Notes: generated by a model from the sequence alone, not told the origin. 64,000 nucleotides of DNA from an uncultured Ruminococcus sp. (GCA_964558485.1 CAZLED010000001.1:26491-90490); one strand, 5' to 3'; shown: positions 41,851 to 62,280, counted from the first letter of the stretch. A program made the numbers and translations.

Positions 41851-41910
41851 ATGAATAGGGAATAATGAAGAATGAAGAATTATGGTGGAAATAGCTTCGC
41901 TATTTCGAAT
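41851..41910 (+). repeat. AATGAAG-repeat plus hairpin element, copy 1
   Basis: aataatgaagaatgaagaattatggtg-GAAATAGC-ttc-GCTATTTC (hairpin 41888-41906). Confidence 0.65.
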
Positions 41911-41981
41911 GGTTGATAGGGGGCTGATTTCCTTTGCGAATTTGCAGCTGCGGTTTTATTCGGGAAATTCACCAAATCCTA

Positions 41982-42010
41982 TTGACAGAATACCAGTTTT
42001 GTGCTATACT
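41982..42010 (+). promoter_or_regulatory. Promoter of SBP paralog G
   Basis: TTGACA (41982-41987), 17 nt spacer, TGc-TATACT (42005-42010). Confidence 0.6.
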
Positions 42011-42046
42011 GTGTCCATACTATACTCGATACTTAGGAGGCTATTT

Positions 42047-43516
42047 ATGCGTAGAGTTTGTGCGGGACTGCTGGGGATCCTATTGCTGGTTTCTCTGCTT
42101 TCTTCCTGTGGCAATACAGAGGTCGAAGAAACGGTGGCTGCGGACAACACGGCCACGGAGACCCAGGCCGATACCACACCGGTGGAGACGAGCCGTGCCG
42201 ATTACCCGGACGATCTGCCGGAGAAGGATTTTGGCGGACAGGAGTACATCATTTGCAACATCATCACGGGAGACGTAGACAAGGAATATGAGATCCTGTC
42301 GGTGGAGCTGACCGGAGAAGCCTGCAACGATGCGGTGTTCCATCGGAATGTGAAGATCGAAGAACGGTTCAACACCAAGATCGCAGCCCTGATGGAAGCC
42401 GAGCCGGAGTCGGTGCTGAAGCAGTCTGCGCTTTCCGGAGACAGTGCCTTTACGCTGTGCGGCTACGTGAACTTCAAGGCCTATGTACCGGTAGCGGCCG
42501 GCGCCTGCCTGAACTGGAACGACATTCCCTATGTGGATCAGTCCAAGCCCTGGAATAACCAGCTGGCCAACGAGCCTGCCACCATCAACGGCAAGCTGTT
42601 CGCCATCAACAGTGACCTTTCCATTTCCTCGTTGCAATACACCTATGGGATGTTCTTCAACTATGCGCTGGTGGAGGACCAGGGATACACGCCGGCAGAT
42701 CTGTACCAGATGGTCTTTGACGGCGACTGGACCATCGACAAAATGCGGGAAATGACCGAGAACGTGTGGATCGATACCAATGGCGATACCAAGCACGATG
42801 CCAACGATATCCACGGATACGCCGTGCATCCCGGACTCAATACCACGGACGTCTGGTTGGCAGCGCTGGATCTGCCGGTGGCGACCATCCACAACGACGG
42901 TACCTACTCCATCGATTTCTTCTGTGAAAAGACTATTTCTGCACTGGAAAAGTGCATGGCGCTTACCTTTGACGGCGAGGGCACCTTTACCGGTACCGGT
43001 GGCTGGCGTGAGGTCCCTGCCAACTTTGCATCCGGCAAGATCATGATGACCCAGCTGTACTTTGGGGAGACCACCCAGTCTCTGACCGATATGGAGGACA
43101 CCTATGGGATCCTGCCGCTGCCCAAGTACGACAAGGAGCAGCAGGAATATTACACCAATGCCTGGGACCAGTTCTCCGTATTCTCTGTGCCGGTGACCGC
43201 ATCGGATCTGGAATTTGTGGGTGTGATCTTTGACGCATTGTCTGCAGAGACCTGGCGCACCGTATATCCGGCATACTACGACACCGCACTCAAGAGCCGG
43301 TATTCTGCGGACCCGGCGGTGGCAGAGATCGTGGACATCATCATGGCCGGACGGAAATTTGAGTTCACCTTCCAGTTCGGCGATGACCTGCAGCGTCTGC
43401 CGTATTTGTTCCGGGAAATGCTGGCGGCCAAGACCACGGATGTAGCGTCCAAGTACAAGAGCGTGGAAAGCAAAATGAAGGAAGCCATCGAGAAGATGTA
43501 CTCCTATTACGAATAA
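42047..43516 (+). CDS. Lipoprotein, solute-binding protein family (paralog G)
   Basis: MRRVCAGLLGILLLVSLLSSC lipobox. CNDAVFHRN, SKPWNNQ, DTNGDTKHDANDIHG, YGILPLPKYDK. AGGAGG RBS. Confidence 0.8.
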   Translation: MRRVCAGLLGILLLVSLLSSCGNTEVEETVAADNTATETQADTTPVETSRADYPDDLPEKDFGGQEYIICNIITGDVDKEYEILSVELTGEACNDAVFHRNVKIEERFNTKIAALMEAEPESVLKQSALSGDSAFTLCGYVNFKAYVPVAAGACLNWNDIPYVDQSKPWNNQLANEPATINGKLFAINSDLSISSLQYTYGMFFNYALVEDQGYTPADLYQMVFDGDWTIDKMREMTENVWIDTNGDTKHDANDIHGYAVHPGLNTTDVWLAALDLPVATIHNDGTYSIDFFCEKTISALEKCMALTFDGEGTFTGTGGWREVPANFASGKIMMTQLYFGETTQSLTDMEDTYGILPLPKYDKEQQEYYTNAWDQFSVFSVPVTASDLEFVGVIFDALSAETWRTVYPAYYDTALKSRYSADPAVAEIVDIIMAGRKFEFTFQFGDDLQRLPYLFREMLAAKTTDVASKYKSVESKMKEAIEKMYSYYE

Positions 43517-43595
43517 GTCAAGGCCTTACGGATCCGTTAACACAGAGCAAGGTTGGGCGGATCGGCGTTGGCTGCAGCAAAACATAGCAAAACAA

Positions 43596-43650
43596 ACGAG
43601 AGCAGAGGTCGTGTCGGCTCGGACACCGCTTCTGCTCTCGTCTTTTGTTT
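43596..43650. terminator. Bidirectional terminator (paralog G on plus strand, tRNA-Ser on minus strand)
   Basis: acgagagcag-...-ctgctctcgt, flanked by an A-rich 5' side and cttttgtttg 3' side. Confidence 0.65.
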
Positions 43651-43727
43651 GTGCACACAAACGTGGTTGTGCCCACAAACACAAAAAAACCAGCAAATCC
43701 ATAGGGAATCACTGGTTCTTTCGCTGA

Positions 43728-43815
43728 CGCAGAAGGAGAGATTTGAACTCTCGCACCGGTTACCCGGCCTACACCCTTAGCAGGGGCGCCTCTTCGGCCA
43801 CTTGAGTACTTCTGC
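43728..43815 (-). tRNA. tRNA-Ser (anticodon GCT), class II with long variable arm, CCA not encoded
   Basis: Manual cloverleaf: acceptor GCAGAAG/CTTCTGC, anticodon stem CGCCC/GGGTG, loop CTGCTAA, 19-nt variable arm, T arm GAGAG-TTCAAAT-CTCTC. 88 nt. Confidence 0.9.
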
Positions 43816-43856
43816 ATACTTGCAGGTGCGGTCGTCTCAGAAACACCCGCCCCTAT

Positions 43857-43885
43857 AGTATACACCATTTTCTCTCGTTTGTCAA
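43857..43885 (-). promoter_or_regulatory. Promoter of tRNA-Ser
   Basis: Minus strand: TTGACA (43885-43880), 17 nt spacer, TATACT (43862-43857). Confidence 0.6.
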
Positions 43886-44050
43886 CCGGTTTTTCAAAAT
43901 TTTCTTCGGGAATTTACGAAGTTTTTTGGGAATCCCAAAATGCACGTGGCGGCATTGTCGGTGTACGAGCATTTGTTTTGCCGTGATGCTTACTTTGCTT
44001 TGTAAAAGAGAAGGACCCACCGATCGGTCCATCGGCAGATCCACATTTTC

Positions 44051-61138: not shown

Positions 61139-61213
61139 GGTGGGCGTAGCTCAGTTGGTTAGAGCGCCAGGTTGTGGCCCTGGAGGTCGTGGGTTCGACT
61201 CCCATCGCTCACC
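61139..61213 (+). tRNA. tRNA-His (anticodon GTG) with genomically encoded G-1
   Basis: G-1 at 61139 opposite discriminator C. Acceptor GTGGGCG/CGCTCAC, anticodon stem CCAGG/CCTGG, loop TTGTGGC, T arm GTGGG-TTCGACT-CCCAT. Confidence 0.9.
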
Positions 61214-61226
61214 CTAATCAGAAAAT

Positions 61227-61265
61227 GCAGCGTGTTGATCCAAAAGATCGATACGCTGTTTTTTC
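61227..61265 (+). terminator. Terminator of the tRNA cluster
   Basis: gcagcgt-(loop)-acgctg followed by TTTTTTT. Confidence 0.65.
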
Positions 61266-61402
61266 GTTTTCTCCTGGAAAGGTGCTGATGCCGGTCGGCT
61301 TATGCAATTCGTTCTGCTGCGGTGCCCGGACGACGGCAAACTTTGGGAAAGATGAAGGCAAAATAATCCTACCATATCGGTCGGAAATGTGATATAATGT
61401 AT

Positions 61403-61478
61403 AAGTCAGAAATCAGATGCCAGATGTCAGAAGTCTTTTGGAAAAGTCAGATACCCCAACTGCGTTGTGGGTCAGACA
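61403..61478. repeat. GTCAGA-type short repeat cluster (six CAGA cores, plus orientation)
   Basis: aagtcagaaatcagatgccagatgtcagaagtc...aagtcagata...gggtcagacagg. Preceded by TGa-TATAAT at 61390-61398. Confidence 0.5.
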
Positions 61479-61495
61479 GGGGACGGATGGATATA

Positions 61496-61539
61496 CAAAA
61501 AATCCCTGCACACATACGTAGGTACGATTGTGTACAGGG
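61496..61539 (-). terminator. Terminator of the GNAT gene
   Basis: Minus strand: ccctgtacaca-(loop)-tgtgtgcaggg followed by ATTTTTTG. Confidence 0.6.
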
Positions 61540-61563
61540 AATAAATGGTATGCAAAATAGGTT

Positions 61564-61617
61564 CGTCTGACCTCTGACCTCTGACTTTGCGAAGCACGAC
61601 TTCTGAACTCTGACTTT
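61564..61617. repeat. TCTGAC-type short repeat cluster (4 x TCTGAC plus TCTGAA), inverted relative to 61403-61478
   Basis: cgtctgacctctgacctctgactttgcgaagcacgacttctgaactctgactttt. Lies between the GNAT stop and its terminator. Confidence 0.5.
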
Positions 61618-62118
61618 TCAGTTTTGGCTTTGCGTAAGTTCCTTGTCTAAGTGTGCTACCGCCAAGGGAAGGTCTGGGTGGGTCACGGTGTCTCGGAGTA
61701 CAAAACCGTGGCGGAGGTACCAATCCACCAGGCTCTTGTCGATGGCGAAAACCGATACGGTCAGGGTCTGTCCACCGTGGTGTGCGGCGTGATCGATGGC
61801 GAATTCCAGCATTTGTGCGCCGATGCCCTGTCCTCTGTATTCCGGCAAAACTGCCACCTTATCCAGTGTGAACTTGCCCGGCTCCGTTGTCTCCAACTGC
61901 ATATACCCGGCGGTGTGTCCGTCGCACAGGCAACCGAACAGCTTGACGCCCCGGCGATAGTCGCTCATGAGCTGATCCATTTTGATGAAGGAACCGCTGG
62001 CAACACAGTTTTCCTCCGGCAGCTGGTAGGTCTCGGCCACTGTGTGAAAGCTGCGGCGTATGACGCTCAGATACCCCAACAGCTGCGACTGGGACAATAG
62101 GACGATTTTGATGGACAT
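61618..62118 (-). CDS. GNAT-family N-acetyltransferase
   Basis: VAVLPEYRGQGIGAQMLEFAIDHA (acetyl-CoA binding motif A, R/Q-x-x-G-x-G/A). AGGAGAAGG RBS before ATG 62116-62118. Confidence 0.85.
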   Translation of the reverse strand: MSIKIVLLSQSQLLGYLSVIRRSFHTVAETYQLPEENCVASGSFIKMDQLMSDYRRGVKLFGCLCDGHTAGYMQLETTEPGKFTLDKVAVLPEYRGQGIGAQMLEFAIDHAAHHGGQTLTVSVFAIDKSLVDWYLRHGFVLRDTVTHPDLPLAVAHLDKELTQSQN

Positions 62119-62213
62119 AGGGCTCACCTTCTCCTGTGGTTTTTATACCTTTATTATACCAAAAATCCCCGGCTTTGTCAATCGGCAAATGGCAGAGAAA
62201 CGGGAGATAGTGC

Positions 62214-62280
62214 GTAATGAAGAATGATATAATGAAGAATGAATAATTGTGGTAGAAATGGCTTCGCTATTTCAAAAAAT
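62214..62280 (+). repeat. AATGAAG-repeat plus hairpin element, copy 3
   Basis: cgtaatgaagaatgatataatgaagaatgaataattgtggta-GAAATGGC-ttc-GCTATTTC (hairpin 62255-62273), then aaaaaatttt. Confidence 0.65.

Follow-up and report, generated by a model that had tools for sequence, protein, structure and literature searches.

Intergenic heptamer-hairpin repeats of an uncultured Ruminococcus: probable solo arms of IVS-like cassettes

Introduction

What kind of element is a run of AATGAAG repeats with a hairpin that recurs between protein genes of an uncultured Ruminococcus: a regulatory structure of the host, an RNA gene or a mobile repeat? The question was raised by an annotation, made from sequence alone, of a 64,000-nt stretch of DNA (GCA_964558485.1 CAZLED010000001.1:26491-90490; hereafter the window). 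This original prediction reported three copies with compensatory changes in the stem, suggested a small RNA, a REP/MITE-like element or a protein-binding site, and recognised no described family. A covariance model of the unit (R1) was run against the window, the genome (a 2.76-Mb MAG of an uncultured gut or rumen Oscillospirales, assembly 88.9% complete) and related genomes. The reading we prefer, and consider rather probable, is that the window copies and about 22 others are solo arms or gene-less miniatures of IVS-like heptamer-armed hairpin cassettes.

Results

The window copies belong to a dispersed family

Re-reading of the sequence confirmed the three copies on the + strand, with 140, 88 and 135 nt from the hairpin end to the next + strand ATG (copies 1, 2 and 3; 90-140 had been claimed). 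Three, however, is an undercount: R1 finds four units in the window (Table 1), and its genome-wide search gave about 26 units (26 R1 matches, E-values down to 1e-12). The 12-mer AATGAAGAATGA occurs five times in the window at up to one mismatch versus 0.27 expected, and an exact 18-nt array-linker word with a perfect hairpin is present at 40 loci of several phyla including Acidobacteriota. A fortuitous resemblance between AT-rich intergenic stretches of low complexity, which simple, purine-rich heptamers and short hairpins (-4 to -6 kcal/mol as DNA) might suggest, is already refuted by these three counts and has practically no probability left.

Each unit consists of tandem heptamers ([AG][AG]TGAA[GTA])n, 3-6 of them ahead of the linker, the linker AATTRTGGTR and a hairpin of typically 8 bp (stems range over 6-10 bp), in which the outer and apical pairs are fixed, two mid-stem pairs are free or covarying and the loop is T-N-C. 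The apex GC-TNC-GC is found in 47/94 units and its reverse in only 3. Period 7 accounts for the most TRF rows in the genome (240) among periods that are not a multiple of three.

Units occur both as singlets and as inverted doublets, an inverted second arm being found in most units of one related genome, G007, at two contigs of the genome studied here (G000:C107 and C6) and in the Acidobacteriota copies. Units 1, 2 and 4 of the window are solo. The inner-hairpin variant seen in unit 2 recurs elsewhere in the genome (G000:C6:5106 and C12:2908). Downstream of unit 3, an array of another heptamer type directly adjoins the ribosome-binding site that precedes the ECF S-component gene (ATG 62409); it looks like a mismatched opposite arm of this unit. 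About 100 such GACTTCT-type arrays are present in the genome, and the layout (AATGAAG)n-hairpin-...-(GACTTCT)n recurs at G000:C1:10611 and C122:2719.

Table 1. Repeat units of the window and their parts
Feature	Coordinates	Strand	Description
Unit 1 (solo arm)	41850..41919	+	R1 match 77.8 bits
Unit 1 array	41850-41877	+	heptamers TATGAAT AGGGAAT AATGAAG AATGAAG
Unit 1 linker	41878-41887	+	AATTATGGTG
Unit 1 hairpin	41888-41906	+	GAAATAGC/TTC/GCTATTTC; tail GAATGGTTGATAG after hairpin
Unit 2 (two-hairpin variant)	54801..54892	+	R1 match 53.8 bits
Unit 2 first array	54801-54814	+	AATGAAG x2
Unit 2 inner hairpin	54816-54833	+	ACACAAC-TATG-GTTGTGT
Unit 2 second array	54834-54852	+	GTGAAAA GTGAATA ATGAATG
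Unit 2 linker	54853-54862	+	ATTGCGGTG
Unit 2 hairpin	54863-54879	+	GAAAAGC/TAC/GCTTTTC; tail after hairpin
Unit 3	62216..62290	+	R1 match 72.7 bits
Unit 3 array	62216-62244	+	heptamers
Unit 3 linker	62245-62254	+	AATTGTGGTA
Unit 3 hairpin	62255-62273	+	GAAATGGC/TTC/GCTATTTC; one G.T pair; tail AAAAAATTTTAACGTG
Second-type heptamer array	62357..62392	+	GACTTCT GACTTCT CACATTT TACTTCT GACTT
Unit 4	11663..11741 (R1 match 11663-11718)	-	35.4 bits, E 5.7e-5
Unit 4, promoter-like sequence	11630-11658	read on +	TTGCAT-17-TATACT
Unit 4 hairpin	11676-11690	read on +	GAATGC-GCA-GCATTC, then CTACCATAAC

The hairpin is preserved across the family

In an alignment of 94 units from 10 genomes, which was fitted to the model and thus favours pairing, 97.5% of cells are paired and double changes occur in 8/8 pairs, a level reached by 0/500 shuffles. 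The hairpin is kept while its sequence varies, as had been claimed, and compensatory change holds across this larger set. It does not hold among the three window copies, where the stem of copy 2 differs from those of copies 1 and 3 by the loss of one base pair and not by paired substitutions. Nor does covariation prove that individual loci are under selection; it is better explained by divergence among the sub-families of a mobile element. Copies 1 and 2 have hairpins that, as DNA, fold better than shuffled sequences (z between -3.3 and -4.2; -3.3 and -3.9 for unit 1), and the hairpin of copy 3 does not (z -0.8 and -0.2).

A comparison of the window with Rfam at gathering scores gave four tRNAs as its sole matches and no family at the units, in line with the original prediction, which had recognised no described family; recognisable relatives nevertheless exist in the arms of the PF05635 cassettes considered below. 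Units 1 and 3 lack an intrinsic terminator (GC-rich stem plus T-run), unit 2 matches the terminator pattern weakly (3 GC pairs, tail AGATTTGTTT), and no U-tract terminator was seen among the units examined. A conserved promoter is likewise lacking, a -10-like hexamer with the key A being found in only about one third of units. With promoter and terminator not conserved, orientation mixed and orthologous stems changing by pair-breaking substitutions, the suggested small-RNA gene is not supported, and the units look like a small non-coding DNA repeat rather than a new RNA gene.

Genomic setting and variation between sister species

The position of the units relative to genes might speak for a function in the host. 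In 6 of the 15 co-oriented cases the array begins at the gene's stop codon or overlaps it, six upstream ORFs terminate inside an array, and opposite-oriented arrays adjoin the ribosome-binding site of the divergent gene. Many units, and PF05635 cassettes likewise, reach from the stop codon of the gene before them to the ribosome-binding site of the gene after them. The whole 5' leader of the gene starting at ATG 11760 is formed by unit 4: on the + strand, CT-rich heptamers run to ~11741 and are followed by GGAG and the ATG. Taken with array lengths that differ between species by multiples of 7, and a loop and closing pairs conserved across phyla, this could fit a host-selected cis element in RNA or DNA, that is, a hairpin in the 5' leader, with a CU-rich tract, stabilising or tuning translation of the abutted gene, a 3' end structure after the stop codon, or a heptamer repeat tuning expression in 7-nt steps, as for Haemophilus hmw1A, which is controlled by heptamer repeats and an RNase III-targeted leader (PMC12721329, PMC8262952). 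We regard such an element as unlikely, however. The neighbouring genes are mutually unrelated (for unit 2, thiI at 53613-54791 before and pncB at 54968-56425 after), and 15 units are co-oriented with them versus 11 opposite. Unit 1 lies, as predicted, after a terminator-like hairpin that belongs to the preceding gene and before the promoter TTGACA-17-TATACT (41982-42010). Neither a conserved promoter nor a U-tract terminator accompanies the family.

Comparison with the two closest species, G003 and G005, points the same way. The flanks of the orthologous gaps are 80-94% identical, yet both species are empty of all three reported window units; the thiI-pncB gap, for example, is 43 nt (G003) and 41 nt (G005) long without the unit versus 172 nt here. 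At the orthologous site G003 retains a (GACTTCT)-type array without unit 3. On the cassette-arm explanation the window units would have been gained recently, as far as these sequence comparisons go. About 10 other units are common to this genome and G003 or G005. Between species they show array indels of 7, 14, 14 and 27 nt and stem changes that break pairs, with 0 compensatory pairs, so orthologous hairpins decay and units would drift neutrally once inserted.

Patchy distribution, with no transposase recurring beside the units

R1 units were found in 14/149 high-quality genomes of the order, in a sample spanning 11 families, and within one genus their number ranges from 0 to 66, the maximum being that of G007. 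This patchy distribution with a burst in one species, the dominance in G007 of inverted doublets with arrays facing outward and the location of G107 units at contig ends would suit a MITE of an ordinary DDE transposon or another mobile element, for which PF05635 would be a mere frequent cargo or neighbour. We find this quite unlikely, as the termini are not sharp, the arms fraying into arrays of variable length, and no target-site duplication was seen, although this is a weak test, clean empty sites being lacking since filled and empty gaps differ over their whole length. Moreover, G007 has three pairs of + and - units at a distance of 1-2 kb, and between them lie ordinary genes and no transposase: sugar kinase-like and HAD-like hydrolase ORFs in the first, a lipoprotein-like ORF in the second and a MutY-like ORF in the third (all named by eye from translations). 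No transposase recurs beside the units at any locus read.

A REP/REPIN-type element, in which a REP-associated tyrosine (Y1, HUH) transposase (RAYT) recognises and copies a hairpin of single-stranded DNA tagged with GT[AG]G, deserves separate consideration. GGT[AG]G directly precedes the hairpin in 40/94 units (other feet being GGAAG, GGCAG, GGAGG and others), the stem lengths and the mixture of singlets and inverted doublets agree with the description of the GTAG super-family, which admits GTRG and GTGG variants (PMC3733652), and the genome has one RAYT-like ORF (G000:C71, NF047646 67.6 bits, with HUH and Tyr motifs). But this ORF is flanked by another hairpin of high uniformity, GTAG-GGAACGGTC-TT-GACCGTTCC, whose class has 53 copies in the genome, and 0 R1 units lie beside 12 RAYT or IS200 loci. 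No Y1 transposase was found in G007, despite its 66 units, nor in G005 or G027 (98% complete), and the occurrence of RAYT within the genus (20/53 genomes) does not follow the number of units. Also, the conserved block comprises the 10-nt linker and heptamers, more than a tetranucleotide. Since the one RAYT of the genome has another hairpin and the relative with 66 units is without a Y1 transposase, the RAYT explanation fails for these units and we hold it to be quite improbable. The predicted REP/MITE-like nature survives in the broad sense of a dispersed, insertion-polymorphic repeat.

The same units form both arms around PF05635 genes in related genomes

PF05635 is the "23S rRNA intervening-sequence protein" S23p, a four-helix bundle that is Avd-like. 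R1-type units flank a PF05635 gene on both sides in three related genomes: at G116:C20 (arms E 1.3e-5 and 3.6e-5; PF05635 85 bits), at G192:C100, with (AATGAAT/AATGAAG)n arms as in the window (E 4.7e-5 and 1.6e-4; PF05635 89.8 bits), and at G200:C18, where the bracketing is weak. One R1-type arm lies beside PF05635 at G134:C40 and C13, and G070 has the exact linker AATTATGGTA. Beside PF05635 genes the linker motif shows a 3.2-fold enrichment, and inverted period-7 arrays stand on both sides at 13/34 PF05635 loci in the order. PF05635 is carried by 12/14 R1-positive versus 58/135 R1-negative genomes of the order sample, these genomes being related and not independent.

Other observations speak against the cassette reading, among them the lack of any target-site duplication or clean empty site noted above. 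R1-type arms are found at only about 7/63 PF05635 loci scanned, and a PF05635 gene at 0/117 loci fetched by the exact linker word. No PF05635 gene was found in G007 with its 66 units, G005 or G003, and one with AATGAAG-type arms is absent from the 88.9% complete assembly studied here, whose only PF05635 gene (C83) lies between arrays of the other heptamer type, (AGAAGTC)n and (GACTTCT)n.

Discussion

It appears that the reading of the units as cassette arms accounts best for these observations, because the same units form both arms around PF05635 genes in related gut bacteria. The best explanation for the cassette itself is a poorly described selfish insert related to the ORF-bearing IVS of 23S rRNA. 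In its full-length form it would consist of two inverted units around a small PF05635 gene, with arrays of 7-nt repeats prone to slippage. A trans-acting factor might copy units to new intergenic sites, recognising array and linker through their sequence and the hairpin in single-stranded form (DNA or RNA); the sole recurrent candidate for it is the PF05635 protein. We know of no demonstration of function or mobility for PF05635 proteins outside diversity-generating retroelements. The solo units described here would be mostly passengers from which neighbouring genes incidentally obtain a stop codon or leader sequence.

A wider proposal can be put forward only tentatively, with a small chance of being right. 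The array, AATTRTGGTR and TNC-loop mini-hairpin would be the putative cis site of a pentameric S23p/Avd-like PF05635 protein, the pair forming a cross-phylum class of mobile cassettes; gene-less arms and doublets might then explain bacterial heptamer repeats, including cyanobacterial STRR, and ORF-bearing 23S IVSs would be copies landed in rRNA by chance.

Among known systems, REP, BIME and REPIN elements (PMC3733652, PMC2817692) resemble the units in being short extragenic hairpins with 6-9 bp stems and a G-T-R-G foot, the latter present in 40/94 of the units, and in occurring as singlets and inverted doublets, in mosaic clusters with other repeats and with presence or absence between close species. 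The units differ from them by the lack of a cognate RAYT, AT-rich stems, heptamer arrays with a 10-nt linker and about 26 copies versus hundreds. In the promoter-leader region of Haemophilus influenzae hmw1A/hmw2A, heptanucleotide repeats act via the structure of an RNase III-cut leader RNA (PMC8262952, PMC12721329); common to both is a 7-nt tandem array of slippage-prone copy number upstream of a gene, but theirs is a single-locus contingency switch and the units here are a dispersed repeat family. The unusually stable GCGNAGC DNA mini-hairpin is found at single-strand DNA initiation sites (PMC13037366). The apex of half of the units is GC-GNA-GC on the strand opposite the linker, which is a sequence match only, and unlike in GCGNAGC the stem beneath it is AT-rich and weak.

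Short tandemly repeated repetitive (STRR) heptanucleotide repeats of heterocystous cyanobacteria were reportedly described by Mazel et al. in 1990; a mention is also found in PMC2670836. Like the units, STRR form intergenic tandem arrays of heptamers, with several types in one genome, and have no function that is known. They come from another phylum and have other heptamers, and neither a linker-hairpin module nor a PF05635 link is known to be described for them; kinship of the units with STRR is a conjecture.

The ORF-bearing IVSs of 23S rRNA in Coxiella burnetii and Leptospira are considered selfish, their mode of spread not being known, and in the Coxiella IVS an S23p ORF is combined with a stem of inverted repeats and with tandem heptamers that vary in number between strains (PMC4990558). 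Unlike them, the units are intergenic and not in 23S rRNA helix 25 or 45: no rRNA is present in the window and all units lie between protein genes, outside the strict 23S location of an IVS. The window copies are also without an ORF and mostly without a second arm, and the AATTRTGGTR linker with a small TNC-loop hairpin is not described for IVSs. With IVSs the cassettes share terminal inverted repeats that pair into a long stem, a loop holding a small PF05635 ORF, and heptamers of variable number, which in the IVS stand just upstream of the ORF, and cassettes of IVS layout with arms of the window's unit type do occur in the order.

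Structure and genomic setting of the unit

The intergenic element predicted to occur in three copies is present at all three places, always on the plus strand, but its number was underestimated. A covariance model of the units (R1; built from 11 gap-free copies, 60 positions, 8 pairs) gives 26 matches in the source genome (G000, a 2.76-Mb draft of 202 contigs with 54% G+C, of which the window is C1:26491-90490), including a fourth unit in the window, and a pattern search gives about 20. Each copy consists of an array of tandem heptamers [AG][AG]TGAA[GTA], a linker (AATTATGGTG, ATTGCGGTG or AATTGTGGTA) and a hairpin of 7–8 bp with a 3-nt loop, followed by an AT-rich tail. 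When the three gaps were compared with the genome by BLAST, the repeated part ran from the array through linker and hairpin to some 20 nt of the tail, the remainder of each gap being unique. If one mismatch at most is allowed, the word AATGAAGAATGA has 5 occurrences in the window, where 0.27 would be expected. An Rfam search of the 64-kb window, which had been proposed as a check, returned four tRNAs only at the gathering score, and the exact hairpin TGGTRGAAATAGCNNNGCTATTTC gave a single chance match in a contig collection without close relatives. Several variant forms of the unit exist in the genome (see the table). The pncB gene of the window has close relatives in MAGs of uncultured Eubacteriales, Oscillospiraceae and Clostridia, which were obtained from the guts of animals and humans.

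Positions of units, unit variants, cassette arms and neighbouring features (plain numbers, window positions; C, contig of the source genome; G, other genomes)
Feature	Position	Strand	Remarks
Copy 1	41850-41919	+	gap 222 nt; 111 nt in G003; flanks match on different contigs in G005
Copy 2	54801-54892	+	two-hairpin form; gap 172 nt; 43 nt in G003; 41 nt in G005
Copy 3	62216-62290	+	gap 159 nt; 29 nt in G003; 50 nt in G005
Unit 4	11663-11718	-	R1 match
Main REP copy	53422-53445	+	near tRNA at 53136-53208
Eight GNCTTCT-type heptamers	27975-28030	+	between terminator and -35 box of TTGACA-17-TATAAT promoter
Repeated promoter region	62153-62181	-	~9 times in genome (BLAST coverage)
Repeated promoter region	41982-42010	+	~9 times in genome (BLAST coverage)
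Two-hairpin form, other copies	C6:5106; C12:2908
Long-loop forms	C122; C100:2815; C27
Inverted doublets	C6:5106/5288; C107:4004/4112
(AGAAGTC)n array replacing (AATGAAG)n	C135; C70
R1-type cassette arms	G116:C20		two doublets, E 1.3e-5 and 3.6e-5
R1-type cassette arms	G192:C100		both arms, E 4.7e-5 and 1.6e-4
R1-type cassette arms	G200:C18		weak
Single R1-type arm	G134:C40; G134:C13

Genes were called with a crude codon-usage caller; by these calls, 15 of the 26 units have an upstream gene in their own orientation and 11 have one in the opposite orientation. The upstream ORF ends within the array in six of the co-oriented cases (at C100:4203 it reads ...GTG GTG GAT AGT GAA GAA TGA), and in many of the opposite ones the array adjoins the ribosome-binding site of the divergent gene. 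Unit 4 takes up all of the 5' leader of the gene whose ATG is at 11760, downstream of a TTGCAT-17-TATACT promoter-like site. As the original prediction had it, copy 1 is preceded by a terminator-like hairpin and followed by the next promoter. The unit was found to include neither a conserved promoter nor a conserved terminator. An outward promoter (T[CT]GAAA-18-CA[TC]AAT), which units 1 and 3 show on their minus strand, was rejected because the A2 position of its -10 box is kept in only about one third of units, and a terminator function was rejected as well. The idea that TGA in all three frames is a designed feature was also dropped: it is true for AATGAAG and GACTTCT but fails for the AGAATTC variant in another genome (G022).

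Two further observations concern the surroundings of units. About 350 nt between two outward-facing units (C135:3720-4130) carry a TTGCAA-17-TATAAT promoter and no ORF, and could represent an unannotated non-coding RNA. Two promoter regions of the window are themselves repeated in the genome, to which the paralogous solute-binding-protein genes noted earlier in the window may be relevant.

Hairpin pairing and its variation

Alignment of 94 units from ten genomes to R1, which as a model-fitted alignment favours pairing, gave 97.5% paired cells and double-sided changes in 8 of 8 pairs (126 cells). None of 500 shuffles matched the observed pairing and covariation, and slid controls dropped to 28–69% paired. 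The stems themselves (GAAATAGC, AAAATGC, CATTGC, GAAAACGC, GAATCTGC and GAAACCGC, with GC-rich ones in other taxa) leave little doubt that the covariation is real in spite of the fitted alignment. Most variation falls on two mid-stem pairs; the outer G-C, A-T, A-T and the apical G-C, C-G are nearly fixed. The apex reads GC-TNC-GC in 47 of the 94 units and the reverse in 3 only, so that its opposite strand reads GCGNAGC and matches the motif sequence of a very stable DNA mini-hairpin (PMC13037366). A strand-specific wobble signal, as expected of G.U under an RNA reading, was sought and not found (G.T 6, T.G 6, C.A 7, A.C 3). Folded as DNA, copies 1 and 2 are better than shuffles (z -3.3 to -4.2), and the mismatch-bearing copy 3 is not.

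Gain, loss and drift between sister species

The two closest species (G003 and G005) were compared over flanks 80–94% identical to those of the window. The window units are absent from G003 at all three sites and from G005 at sites 2 and 3, where the gaps are correspondingly short; the unit has thus been gained recently between sister species. At site 3, G003 keeps an (ACTTCTG)n array beside the ribosome-binding site, the AATGAAG array and the hairpin being missing. Apart from this, filled and empty gaps cannot be aligned, which leaves any target duplication unreadable. On the other hand, the source genome too has a unit at the sites of 11 of the 13 units of G003 and G005. These orthologous pairs differ by array indels of 7, 14, 14 and 27 nt and by pair-breaking stem differences (C1:10621, C9:8858, C100:4203, C7:1657), with no compensatory stem change among them. 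The predicted compensatory changes are therefore seen between copies, that is, between sub-families, and are not maintained in place by selection at each locus. This is the pattern of a mobile repeat and not that of a locus-required structure.

Distribution among bacteria

Within the genus most genomes have no R1 match, and others have 5, 8, 18–26 or, in one relative (G007), 66. Nearly all units of G007 are inverted doublets in the order array, linker, hairpin A, short spacer, hairpin B, then linker and array on the other strand; a search for an autonomous element between its plus and minus unit pairs revealed ordinary genes only. In a sample of the order covering 11 families, 14 of 149 high-quality genomes have R1 matches, 1–9 each. 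When 185,579 species genomes were scanned for GAATGAAKAATTRTGGTR as an exact word, at least 117 loci were found. Among the matches listed, 40 of 117 have heptamers before the word and a perfect hairpin immediately after it, with loops mostly TTC or TGC; these include loci from Ruminiclostridium, Ruminococcaceae, Oscillospiraceae and Christensenellaceae, and others from Acidobacteriota, Thermoanaerobaculia and candidate division FCPU426. What is conserved as sequence is therefore the heptamers and the linker; for the hairpin, conservation is limited to the structure, with its fixed loop.

In a genome from another family of the order (G107, loci L181-L187) the unit comes immediately after the upstream gene's intrinsic terminator, and behind it lie a conserved TTCCGATAATATATAAAT tail and several GGGGTCCCC-type palindromes in a chain. 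The repeat breaks the assembly of this genome, in which three contigs start 45 nt ahead of a unit.

Relation to REP elements and other heptamer arrays

The suggestion of a REP- or MITE-like element stands as far as the mobile-repeat pattern goes, but a REP/RAYT origin was rejected. The sole RAYT-like ORF of the genome (C71, 182 aa) has the HUH and Tyr motifs and scores 67.6 bits with NF047646, under the cut-off of 80, and 24.1 bits with PF01797. It is flanked by a different hairpin, inverted GTAG-GGAACGGTC-TT-GACCGTTCC, a uniform class (the main REP) of which the genome holds 53 copies, and the units are the only other abundant hairpin headed by GT[AG]G. None of 12 RAYT or IS200 loci has an R1 unit beside it, no Y1 gene was found in the genomes G007, G005 and G027, and RAYT, which 20 of the 53 genomes in the genus possess, does not track unit counts. 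Heptamer arrays are not a general companion of the main REP either, since only 2 of its 53 copies have an array upstream. The C71 gene and its REP hairpins adjoin a long array of related GTAAGGAACGG... repeats.

Period 7 accounts for 240 TRF rows in the genome, the most among periods that are not multiples of three (period 5, 9 rows; period 8, 62). Intergenic arrays are about 100 of GACTTCT type and some 16–25 of AATGAAG type, and arms of the two types are paired at unit 3, C1:10611 and C122. The window array of GNCTTCT type reads GGCCTTCT GCCCTCT GCCGTCT TACTTCT GCCGTCT GACTTCT GCCTTCT GACTTCC. A role of (GACTTCT)n arrays as promoter-upstream elements was rejected because they lack orientation bias to genes (29/17/25/20).

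Heptamer arms around PF05635 genes

The genome has one PF05635 gene (C83:6339-6653, 118 aa, 94 bits), bracketed by inverted arrays, of (AGAAGTC)n type in one flank and (GACTTCT)n in the opposite flank (C83:6040-6940; L196 1255-1960). One arm of this cassette holds two nested GGAACGGTC-type REP hairpins, one of them degenerate with a longer loop; one repeat family has therefore inserted into another. In the order sample PF05635 occurs in 70 of 149 high-quality genomes, often in several copies, and inverted period-7 arrays lie on both sides of 13 of the 34 loci read, each with its own heptamer. The layout runs from a stop codon through an array, sometimes a small hairpin, and a ribosome-binding site to the PF05635 gene, then through a small hairpin and the inverted array to the ribosome-binding site of the next gene. 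Similar arrangements are known from Coxiella, whose IVS has a 28-bp inverted-repeat stem, a loop that contains an S23p ORF, and tandem GACAGAT heptamers varying in number between strains; it has been termed selfish and its origin unknown (PMC4990558). PF05635 proteins are similar to Avd, a protein found in diversity-generating retroelements (PMC10053308).

Some cassettes have arms of R1 type (see the table). Those of G192 are (AATGAAT/AATGAAG)n, the same heptamer as in the window units; the left arm leads into TTAAGGTCA and a TTC-loop hairpin, and the hairpin loop of the right arm is AGC. The exact linker AATTATGGTA is present in a cassette of G070. The linker motif in the right orientation is enriched 3.2-fold within 200 nt of PF05635 genes (18 versus about 5.6 expected). 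PF05635 is carried by 12 of 14 R1-positive versus 58 of 135 R1-negative genomes of the order sample, a comparison that is descriptive only because the genomes are related. Several results count against the link: no PF05635 gene was found in G007, G005 or G003, none lies beside the exact linker word among the matches listed (117 loci, 828 kb), and no cassette with AATGAAG arms was found in the source genome.

Two cassettes deserve separate mention. That of G116:C20, arranged doublet-gene-doublet, has a near-identical small palindrome GCAAAATC-NNN(N)-GATTTTGC on both sides (L198 1225-1250, 2008-2030), which could result from target duplication or represent an additional module; the GCAAAATC/GATTTTGC stem recurs as the long-loop hairpin of units C122, C100:2815 and C27 of the source genome. 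In two families of the order, PF05635 cassettes with similar AGATA-type heptamers (L204, G174:C11; L210, G193:C7) lie between a stop after ...FHH and the start MKVLVVGGG or MNLLVIGSGG, which by eye resembles the purH-purD junction. This could go back to one ancient insertion that both share, or to a preference for the site.

Interpretation and comparison with known elements

On balance, we favour the reading that the window copies are solo arms and miniatures of heptamer-armed, IVS-like cassettes. The mode in which units spread, and any role of the PF05635 protein, we infer. The stop codons and leader sequence that units supply to neighbouring genes would be an accident of their insertion. Genes end in units, 5' leaders are filled by them and MAG assemblies break at them, and annotation should recognise units as such instead of labelling them small RNAs or REPs.

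Tandem heptamers in intergenic regions of bacteria and 23S rRNA IVSs bearing ORFs have both been known for decades; to our knowledge, neither has been explained. What is new here is a sharply defined module of array, 10-nt linker and structure-only hairpin with a fixed loop, a linker whose conservation extends from Clostridia of the gut to Acidobacteriota of soil, recent gains of the unit between sister species, and the clear failure of a REP/RAYT link when it was tested. The locus adds that the same module forms arms around PF05635 genes. Together, the definition of the module, its gains and the PF05635 arms replace a vague resemblance by a cis site paired with a candidate protein, a pairing that can be tested.
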